A stretch of 8,395 bases of DNA from a virus (Monodnaviria > Loebvirae > Hofneiviricota > Faserviricetes > Tubulavirales > Inoviridae). Both the position numbers and the translations under genes were made by a program. The notes beneath the pieces were generated by a model. The model was not told where the DNA came from, searched no databases, and was given only the letters and a program-made list of their open reading frames with translations. The DNA is taken from IMG/VR virus record IMGVR_UViG_2537562014_000001; one strand, 5' to 3'. Positions 7,864-7,963 of the stretch are shown here, piece by piece; the stretch's first letter is position 1, and each line of letters opens with the position of its first letter.

Positions 7864-7963
7864 CCAGTGCGCACAATGACGTTATGTGTAAAAAAGGCCG
7901 CTGCGGTGGAGAGTATCGCAGCGGCCTTTTTCAACATAACGTGTAACACATTATGCGCACTGG
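7864..7963. other. XerCD-type phage attachment region: two inverted dif-like sites flanking a hairpin (attP forked-hairpin architecture)
   Basis: Site A (+, 7864-7893) CCAGTGCGCACAA-TGAC-GTTATGTGTAAA. Site B (reverse complement of 7933-7963) CCAGTGCGCATAA-TGTGTTACACG-TTATGTTGAAA. Both resemble E. coli dif GGTGCGCATAA-TGTATA-TTATGTTAAAT (recalled) in the XerC and XerD arms, with unequal central regions that would form a bulge when the arms pair in ssDNA. Confidence 0.6.
7891..7931. terminator. Strong symmetric hairpin (bidirectional terminator-like), core of the att region
   Basis: AAAAA-GGCCGCTGCG-gtggagagtat-CGCAGCGGCC-TTTTT: perfect 10-bp GC-rich stem (7896-7905 / 7917-7926), 11-nt loop, flanked by an A-tract and a T-tract. 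Confidence 0.55.

Follow-up and report, generated by a model that had tools for sequence, protein, structure and literature searches.

The window analysed here, a stretch of 8,395 nucleotides (nt) recorded in IMG/VR as IMGVR_UViG_2537562014_000001, is an inovirus prophage of Escherichia coli whose main genes are encoded by the minus strand. Our main finding is that a 102-nt hairpin close to one of its ends (7863-7964) is very probably an attP(+) of the CTX type, i.e., the attachment site of an integrase-less prophage that would use XerC and XerD of its host at the chromosomal site dif. The anatomy of the hairpin, its fold, its conservation and covariation, the position of the crossover, the orientation, the location at dif and the parallel with the phage CTXphi were all established in this work.

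Anatomy of the attachment hairpin

The hairpin is an imperfect palindrome in which two convergent dif-like sites flank a perfect 10-bp GC stem, and the phage (+) strand corresponds to the minus strand of the window. Its parts are the following:

7863..7964, minus strand: whole attP hairpin (DNA folds, inverted repeats I1, I3 and I4, consensus structure in 27 variants)
7866..7892, plus strand: site A, made of a XerC-like arm, a 5-nt spacer and a XerD-like arm
7951..7961 (read 7961-7951), minus strand: predicted XerC-binding arm of site B, AGTGCGCATAA, 10/11 to dif
7940..7950 (read 7950-7940), minus strand: spacer of site B, TGTGTTACACG, 11 nt, starting with TGT
7929..7939 (read 7939-7929), minus strand: predicted XerD-binding arm of site B, TTATGTTGAAA, 9/11 to dif
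7896..7926, no strand assigned: apical stem-loop, with a perfect 10-bp GC stem and an 11-nt loop

E. coli dif, read from K-12, is GGTGCGCATAA-TGTATA-TTATGTTAAAT. Alignment with the host dif, proposed as a check in an earlier sequence-only reading of this DNA, showed that the arms of the hairpin match it. In site A, the XerC-like arm AGTGCGCACAA (7866-7876, plus strand) agrees with the dif XerC arm at 9/11 positions, the spacer TGACG occupies 5 nt (7877-7881, plus strand) and the XerD-like arm TTATGTGTAAA (7882-7892, plus strand) agrees with the dif XerD arm at 8/11. The sequence-only reading had placed all arms at 9-10 of 11, which is right for the XerC arm of site A (9) and for the two arms of site B (10 and 9) but not for the XerD arm of site A (8/11). 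It had also given site A a central region of 4 nt, which we correct to 5 nt; the 4-nt register leaves the XerD arm with 3/11 matches.

The spacers of the two sites are unequal, 11 nt in site B and 5 nt in site A. The first three bases of the longer one, TGT, are those of the XerC side of the dif spacer TGTATA, and homology to dif is confined to this side (TGT followed by GTTACACG, versus TGT followed by ATA in dif). On the XerD side, the bottom strand, which in the folded site would be the complement of site A, reads CGT in the hairpin versus TAT in dif. The apical stem is formed by GGCCGCTGCG and CGCAGCGGCC (7896-7905 and 7917-7926) around a loop at 7906-7916, and it is lengthened by an A6 tract (7890-7895) and a T5 tract (7927-7931), the resulting inverted repeat I3 being 15 nt long and 100% complementary.

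Departure from chance and predicted fold

Single half-sites carry no signal: XerC-arm-like half-sites have 6 matches in the window versus 2.4 expected, XerD-arm-like half-sites have 2 versus 3.3 expected, and neither count is above chance. Half-sites alone were accordingly rejected as a signal, because these 11-mers are not enriched in the window, and only the composite is significant. Composite sites, defined as a XerC arm, 3-13 nt and a XerD arm, occur twice in the window, versus a mean of 0.041 per dinucleotide shuffle, and neither two composite sites nor a convergent pair was seen in any of 1000 such shuffles. The inverted dif-like pair around a GC hairpin, as first described from sequence, is in this sense borne out.

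As single-stranded DNA (ssDNA), the hairpin folds at -43.9 kcal/mol on the plus strand of the window and at -44.7 kcal/mol on the minus strand, with z-scores of about -12 to -13 (-12.2 for the latter), and no shuffle was as stable (0/200). Both XerC and XerD arms are paired in the predicted fold, and a 6-nt top-strand bulge opens within the spacer of site B, the unpaired bases being TGTTAC (7948-7943). The sequence-only reading had expected a stable forked structure. Stability and arm pairing came out as expected, but the predicted structure is a simple bulged hairpin and not a fork, the hairpin of CTXphi itself being forked. A search against Rfam gave no match at gathering score.

Conservation, covariation and strand preference

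A search pattern derived from the hairpin, which included TTATGCGCA, CATAAC and GTTATG, found the cassette in 43 inovirus-sized IMG/VR contigs. About 230 of 5426 complete E. coli genomes (~4%) carry at least 80% of the hairpin, and among species-representative genomes the cassette is present in Yersinia pestis, Lelliottia, Phytobacter, Enterobacter, Erwinia and Kluyvera. Some 25 further pattern matches in unrelated phyla lack the hairpin and were thrown out by eye as chance.

The consensus structure is kept across 27 distinct variants, with 98% of cells paired, and sliding the partner columns of the alignment abolishes the pairing. Compensatory change is seen in 17/35 pairs versus 4.0 +/- 1.5 in column shuffles, none of which reached as high a count (0/500). 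The apical stem contributes much of it (11/13 pairs), and four variants have wholly different stems that are still paired. Position 1 of the arms of sites A and B also covaries (G-C in 15, A-T in 5), and the four G.T cases at this position are host-type G arms opposite an A-type site A. All other arm differences are transitions, which pair as G.T wobbles in the coding (+) strand and would be A.C mismatches in its complement. The TGT start of the spacer of site B is kept in nearly all variants.

The strand preference points in the same direction. The (+) fold is the more stable one in 37/40 related variants, with a mean gain of 2.0 kcal/mol, and in 44/44 phage contigs the top strand of site B coincides with the strand that encodes most of the genes. 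In inoviruses in general, the coding strand is the virion strand; the minus strand of the window is also T-rich.

Location at dif and position of the crossover

E. coli UTAK-18 has a prophage with 99.5% identity to the window. This strain and strain 504211 hold mixed tandem arrays of inoviruses between the ydeT fimbrial cluster and hipBA, the locus where dif sits in K-12; the related prophages are at dif and not at a tRNA gene. Neither the open reading frames (ORFs) that were scanned nor the annotated genes of the near-identical UTAK-18 prophage include an integrase. The integration site was one of the checks suggested for the sequence-only reading, and its proposal of a CTXphi-type XerCD mechanism gains support from the dif-matching arms, the stable fold, the location at dif and the lack of an integrase of the prophage's own. 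An integron attC site or an IS200/IS605 end was also considered as an identity for the palindrome and rejected because the arms match dif and the element lies at dif.

The empty site in K-12 reads ttggtttatatt-GGTGCGCATAA-TGTATA-TTATGTTAAAT-catgtctgagtg. On the hipA side of the arrays in 504211 and UTAK-18, the host flank and GGTGCGCATAA are fused to TGTGTTACACG-TTATGTTGAAA, followed by the loop and site A, and on the ydeT side phage intergenic DNA and AGTGCGCATAA are fused to TGTATA-TTATGTTAAAT and the host flank. Position 1 of the XerC arm is G at the host-adjacent junctions and A at all internal junctions and in the rebuilt dif. The comparison of these sequences places the crossover within the shared GTGCGCATAATGT, i.e., at the border between XerC arm and spacer of site B (between 7950 and 7951), which is also the proposed point of XerC cleavage; the crossover was mapped in two complete genomes, 504211 and UTAK-18, and the window itself shows an internal junction only.

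Because it carries the A-type arm at position 1, site B of the window is, on the sequence, an internal phage-phage junction, and its XerC arm comes, in the prophage state, from the element to its right. The sequence-only reading had offered a junction at either site or a tandem arrangement, and both turned out to be true, the neighbour being another inovirus. Both sites lying intact at one prophage end is the expected, normal outcome of CTX-type integration and not an anomaly.

These junctions bear on a VGJphi-type alternative, in which site B alone would act in the double-stranded (ds) replicative form through a XerC exchange with dif, site A and the hairpin being uninvolved. VGJ-type phages are a known class (PMC4246890), and the junctions observed are exactly those of a ds XerC-first exchange at site B. 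We nevertheless consider this explanation very unlikely. The spacer of site B is 11 bp long, and attP1 of CTXphi, the analogous site with 12 bp, reportedly has no activity in duplex form (PMC4246890). Site A has complementary arms in every variant, with a covarying position 1 (GC 15, AU 5), only on the (+) strand do the arm differences amount to wobbles, and site B is always on the coding strand, while a ds mechanism needs neither the pairing of site A nor the (+) wobbles, the strand bias or the long spacer.

The palindrome could also be mainly a terminator, a packaging signal or a minus-strand origin, with a likeness to dif that is incidental or an inactive relic. Functional hairpins are found in the intergenic region of Ff phages, the GC stem with its A and T tracts resembles a bidirectional intrinsic terminator and stands at the end of the plus-strand genes at 7028-7643, and covariation of the stem alone would fit an RNA hairpin equally well. 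Taking a rho-independent terminator as a GC-rich stem with a loop of 3-8 nt and a T run after it, a stem and T tracts occur here on either strand; our terminator scan did not call the apical stem, its 11-nt loop being beyond the limit of the tool. On the other side, the arms and TGT are kept well past the needs of a terminator, the element is always at dif, and in two genomes the crossover falls where the arm and the spacer of site B meet; we regard this explanation as extremely improbable. A second role as terminator or folding clamp is compatible with the CTX-type reading.

Several points weigh against a CTX-type attP. The XerD arm of site A matches dif at only 8/11 positions, and the folded spacer, 5 bp with a 6-nt bulge, is unlike the 6-bp spacer of dif. 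In the hairpin of the window itself, the (+) strand is only slightly more stable (-44.7 versus -43.9 kcal/mol). Invariance of TGCGCATAA, GTTATG and CATAAC is forced by the search pattern, and the variants share descent, counts such as 44/44 and 37/40 not being independent trials. The junctions prove Xer-type recombination at site B but not the folded form, and Xer binding, cleavage and the use of ssDNA are taken from the analogy with CTXphi. This copy is truncated by an insertion sequence (IS), and phage production may perhaps be lost. Finally, its junction could derive from duplication or homologous recombination in the array and not from a fresh Xer event.

This last point can be widened into an explanation of its own, in which the attP is a genuine CTX-type site and this particular junction came from amplification, homologous recombination or hybrid rolling-circle products in the array. 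It concerns the history of the copy and not the function of the site, and we find it unlikely. In its favor, a unit of one TGT hairpin and two mini-elements recurs in UTAK-18 at a distance of 11.2 kb, copies of Ypfphi have been discussed as partners in homologous recombination (PMC4266046), and an intergenic module of 115 nt is duplicated in the window without the hairpin. On the other hand, a Xer event and its copy are indistinguishable by sequence, and the A-type arm fits both.

Comparison with known Xer-exploiting phages

The attP(+) of CTXphi was described by Val et al. 2005 and Das et al. 2010, as reviewed in PMC4246890. Its two sites, attP1 and attP2, have spacers of 12 bp and 5-7 bp, with homology to dif on the XerC side only (PMC4246890). 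Integration proceeds by a XerC-only exchange with replicative resolution, and it is irreversible since the duplex loses the fold (PMC4246890; also PMC3442271). We examined the RS1-CTX array in NC_015209 for comparison. At its first junction the host arm AGTGCGCATTA is fused to the 12-nt attP1 spacer TGTGGCGCGGCA, and the phage arm AGTGCGTATTA is present at the internal junction and in the rebuilt dif1. The inverted attP2 follows about 150 nt downstream with a 7-nt spacer, attP1 being on the coding strand. In our fold of the CTXphi ssDNA, the arms are paired, a 5-nt top-strand bulge lies by the XerC arm and the apex is forked.

The likeness to the window is extensive. Both have an inverted dif-like pair with unequal spacers (11 + 5 nt here; 12 + 7 in CTXphi), the long-spacer site on the coding (+) strand with a TGT start as in dif, a top-strand bulge of 5-6 nt beside the XerC arm and a XerD side without homology. 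In both, the host XerC arm is found at the first junction and the phage arm at the internal junctions and in the rebuilt dif, the prophages form tandem arrays, and repressor-side genes adjoin attP. There are also differences. The apex is here one 10-bp GC stem with ~50 nt between the XerD arms, whereas in CTXphi it is forked, with ~90-100 nt. The host is E. coli, with the dif spacer TGTATA, in contrast to TGTATG in the dif1 used by CTXphi. Sequence homology outside the arms is not detectable, the phage of the window has a secretin gene and a Rep of the gpA family instead of RstA, and the mechanism is here proposed from sequence and predicted fold.

Close variants of the hairpin are in Ypfphi of Y. 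pestis and CUS-1 of E. coli O18:K1:H7, both listed as CTX-type (PMC4246890). For Ypfphi, a potential inverted pair of XerC/XerD sites and a dif rebuilt at the 3' end were reported (PMC4266046). These hairpins are about 76-81% identical to that of the window and share with it the site A spacer TGACG, an identical stem GGCCGCTGCG, identical arms of site B and an 11-nt site B spacer with a TGT start, as well as tandem integration at dif with dif rebuilt at the far end (PMC4266046). They differ in the XerC arm of site A (GGTTCGCACAA there, AGTGCGCACAA in the window), in the spacer of site B (TGTACGACTCG there, TGTGTTACACG in the window), in the loop and in the replication protein, which is an Ff-type gpII Rep (PF05144/PF05155) there and a P2 gpA-type Rep in the window. 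In addition, the phage XerC arm of the window has A as its first base, unlike theirs, so that the crossover is naturally marked. In Y. pestis the hairpin is flanked on one side by the secretin gene of one copy of Ypfphi and on the other by the repressor of the copy that follows. This hairpin is identical to a copy in E. coli UM146, where the gene set fits a CUS-1-like prophage.

VGJphi-type phages resemble the window in their use of host XerCD at dif, in the XerC exchange that comes first and in the same type of hybrid junction. They differ in having a single site with a ~7-bp spacer and reversible integration (PMC4246890), whereas the window has two inverted sites with 11 + 5 bp; it thus lacks the single ds attP with a spacer of ~6-8 bp that defines the type. 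As for the TLC type, taken here as a degenerate XerD arm, a dif-identical spacer and a XerD-first exchange with its own activator, the XerD arm of site B in the window matches dif at 9/11 and its spacer departs from dif after TGT, which does not fit this type; no search aimed at a XafT-like gene was made. The UPphi inoviruses of Enterobacterales also occur as tandem repeats at dif, with approximately the first 15 bases of dif recurring at their junctions (PMC7307601); their backbone is IKe/I2-2-like, and neither an inverted pair nor a hairpin is described in that work.

The CTX-type kind has been known since 2005, and the hairpin cassette was already in the literature for Ypfphi and CUS-1 (PMC4266046; PMC4246890). 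What appears to be new here, as far as our sequence searches reach, is the cassette in a phage backbone that we did not find described in the literature examined or in deposited phage genomes. The current understanding of Xer exploitation is unchanged, and CTXphi-style integration is extended to a common, largely undescribed group of E. coli prophages. The G/A marker in the arm offers natural evidence for the position of strand exchange, and CTX-type integration accounts for the pile-up of such prophages as mixed arrays at the replication terminus. An exact rule for annotating prophage borders in arrays follows: the border is to be drawn where the XerC arm of the long-spacer site meets its TGT.

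Proposed integration mechanism

Under the CTX-type reading, the packaged (+) strand, which is the minus strand of the window, would fold so that site B pairs with the complement of site A. The result would be a duplex XerC arm with one T.G wobble, then 2 bp, the 6-nt top-strand bulge and 3 bp, and, beyond the spacer, a duplex XerD arm followed by the GC-clamped apical hairpin. XerC and XerD would bind the duplex arms, and XerC would cleave the strand of site B between GCGCATAA and TGT. The cut strand would then trade places with its top-strand counterpart in chromosomal dif, an exchange stabilised by the TGT that both have, and the junction would be resolved by replication because there is no homology on the XerD side.

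The expected product would have, at its hipA end, the host XerC arm followed by the phage spacer, XerD arm, loop and site A, and, at its other end, a phage XerC arm that would rebuild a working dif, open to the next insertion. Repeated rounds would yield tandem arrays. Integration would be irreversible, since neither site, with spacers of 11 bp and 5 bp, would be a Xer substrate as duplex DNA. New phage genomes would come from rolling-circle replication across the junctions of the array, which would also shuffle backbones and hairpins. The parallel with CTXphi is what suggests XerC-only catalysis, the use of ssDNA, replicative resolution and irreversibility. The apical GC stem with its A/T tracts may be, in addition, a folding clamp and a bidirectional terminator in the ds prophage.

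Prophage gene content and neighbouring DNA

The inovirus prophage extends from 522 to 7961 of the window and has the gene set expected of Inoviridae (PF05707, PF05357, PF05840 and phrogs for protein I and protein IV). The remaining features of the window are the following:

1-522, no strand assigned: end of an IS21-family element (IstB), 99% to the IstB of IS100kyp
465-815, minus strand: 5' part of the pIV secretin gene (phrog_1012, protein IV), a 116-aa N-terminal fragment
825..4839, minus strand: morphogenesis and structural module, from domain and phrog matches and the annotation of the 99.5%-identical UTAK-18 prophage
825-2081, minus strand: pI/Zot
2089-2448, minus strand: pVI-like gene
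2451-3776, minus strand: pIII
3832-4209, minus strand: pVIII-like gene
4414-4839, minus strand: gene for a protein like an ssDNA-binding protein
5032..6873, minus strand: rolling-circle replication endonuclease of the P2 gpA family, 613 aa (PF05840, E = 5e-48; phrog_91)
7028..7643, plus strand: two opposite-strand genes adjoining attP
7028-7234, plus strand: 68-aa protein (phrog_2503)
7278-7643, plus strand: 121-aa protein like the C-terminal domain of TolA (PF06519, E = 4.5e-12)
7962..8395, minus strand: intergenic region at the end of the adjacent inovirus, with 99.4% identity to strain 504211

The secretin gene is cut at about 522 by the IS21-family element, and homology with intact prophages begins at the same position. 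Because the element cuts the pIV secretin gene, this copy of the prophage is probably defective and unable to export virions by itself. A search of phage genomes returned no deposited phage that matches the window outside the IS. The sole match of the hairpin alone was 29 nt long, in Shewanella phage Dolos (E = 0.008), and the pI protein is about 30-33% identical to those of Ff and Ralstonia phages.

The N-terminus of the 121-aa TolA-like protein is, by eye, hydrophobic and signal-peptide-like. During entry, the pIII of inoviruses binds domain III of TolA. Judging from sequence, the TolA-like protein beside attP could be a periplasmic mimic of TolA, a decoy that excludes superinfecting phage.

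Between these genes and the hairpin, at about 7680-7775 of the window and also at 22800-22890 of L082, a GC-rich stretch lies amid AT-rich DNA. It is kept beside the hairpin across different backbones, and only minus-strand ORFs of 57-60 aa overlap it.

The region 7962-8395 differs from the dif flank of K-12 and is not host chromosome. In 504211 it lies downstream of the secretin gene of the next prophage, and it also abuts the rebuilt dif there; such DNA is what stands ahead of a phage XerC arm. Within it, the intergenic module of ~115 nt is present twice (7960-8072 and 8271-8377), with the copies ~306-311 nt apart and 84-90% identical, each with a terminator-like hairpin on the minus strand (8061-8023 and 8363-8332). 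A XerC arm precedes the first copy; before the second there is neither arm nor hairpin, as if a junction had been deleted. The same intergenic region of the neighbour contains the direct repeats CGTCTCAGTCAACGT and CGTCTCAATCAACGT, 21 nt apart (8094-8129), which might be Rep-binding or origin repeats.

Possible mobility of the cassette, mini-elements and stray copies

Across at least seven enterobacterial genera, the cassette is found with three unrelated families of Rep: PF05840 (window, 5032-6873), PF05144/PF05155 (Ff gpII-type) and PF02486 (RstA/Rep_trans-type). Sister prophages with an identical or near-identical hairpin have their Rep at 10309-11436 and 26214-27410 of L001 and at 9298-10350 of L005. 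These sequences suggest that replication modules were swapped around a constant attachment cassette. We put forward, as a tentative and still doubtful idea, that the hairpin of ~100 nt together with the XerC arm is a self-contained lysogeny cassette moving among unrelated inovirus backbones. The place where such mixing occurs could be the mixed arrays at dif, through rolling-circle read-through across their junctions.

In UTAK-18, miniature elements of 147 nt and 464 nt were observed between full prophages (L002, 21434-22044 and 32615-33225). They consist solely of a hairpin, intergenic DNA and a XerC arm, and their hairpin is of a second type, in which the spacer GACATATGCCG starts with GAC, the apical stem is a different one and TGT homology to dif is missing. 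This type is found at internal positions only in the UTAK-18 array. We looked for a second-type hairpin fused to the host G-arm, which would be proof of direct integration at dif, and found none, the terminal junction of UTAK-18 being of the TGT type. If the second (GAC) type is active, it breaks the homology rule of CTXphi or implies a different target.

Partial copies of the cassette, made up of site A, the GC stem and half of the inverted XerD arm, are present at 484 places on E. coli plasmids, many of them of IncF type, and also at some chromosomal sites away from dif. In plasmid pECO-816c (L004, 3001-3069), the copy lies between IS26 copies and adjoins a gene annotated as TIR-domain. For the ORFs near the plasmid copies, Pfam gave only a sub-threshold TIR match, and similarity to accessory genes of CUS-1 was not found among them.

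The circular record pJNE25-005_3 (L083, 9613 bp), from an E. coli assembly, has a contiguous run of intergenic DNA, A-type XerC arm, TGTGTTACACG, XerD arm, loop and site A, a layout as in a replicative form; the record is error-ridden and contains ISEc31, and we give it little weight. In a metagenome-assembled genome labelled Candidatus Nanosynbacter (contig L061, 5742-5818), the core of the hairpin is identical to that of CUS-1 and Ypfphi, and this contig is most likely a misbinned piece of enterobacterial DNA.

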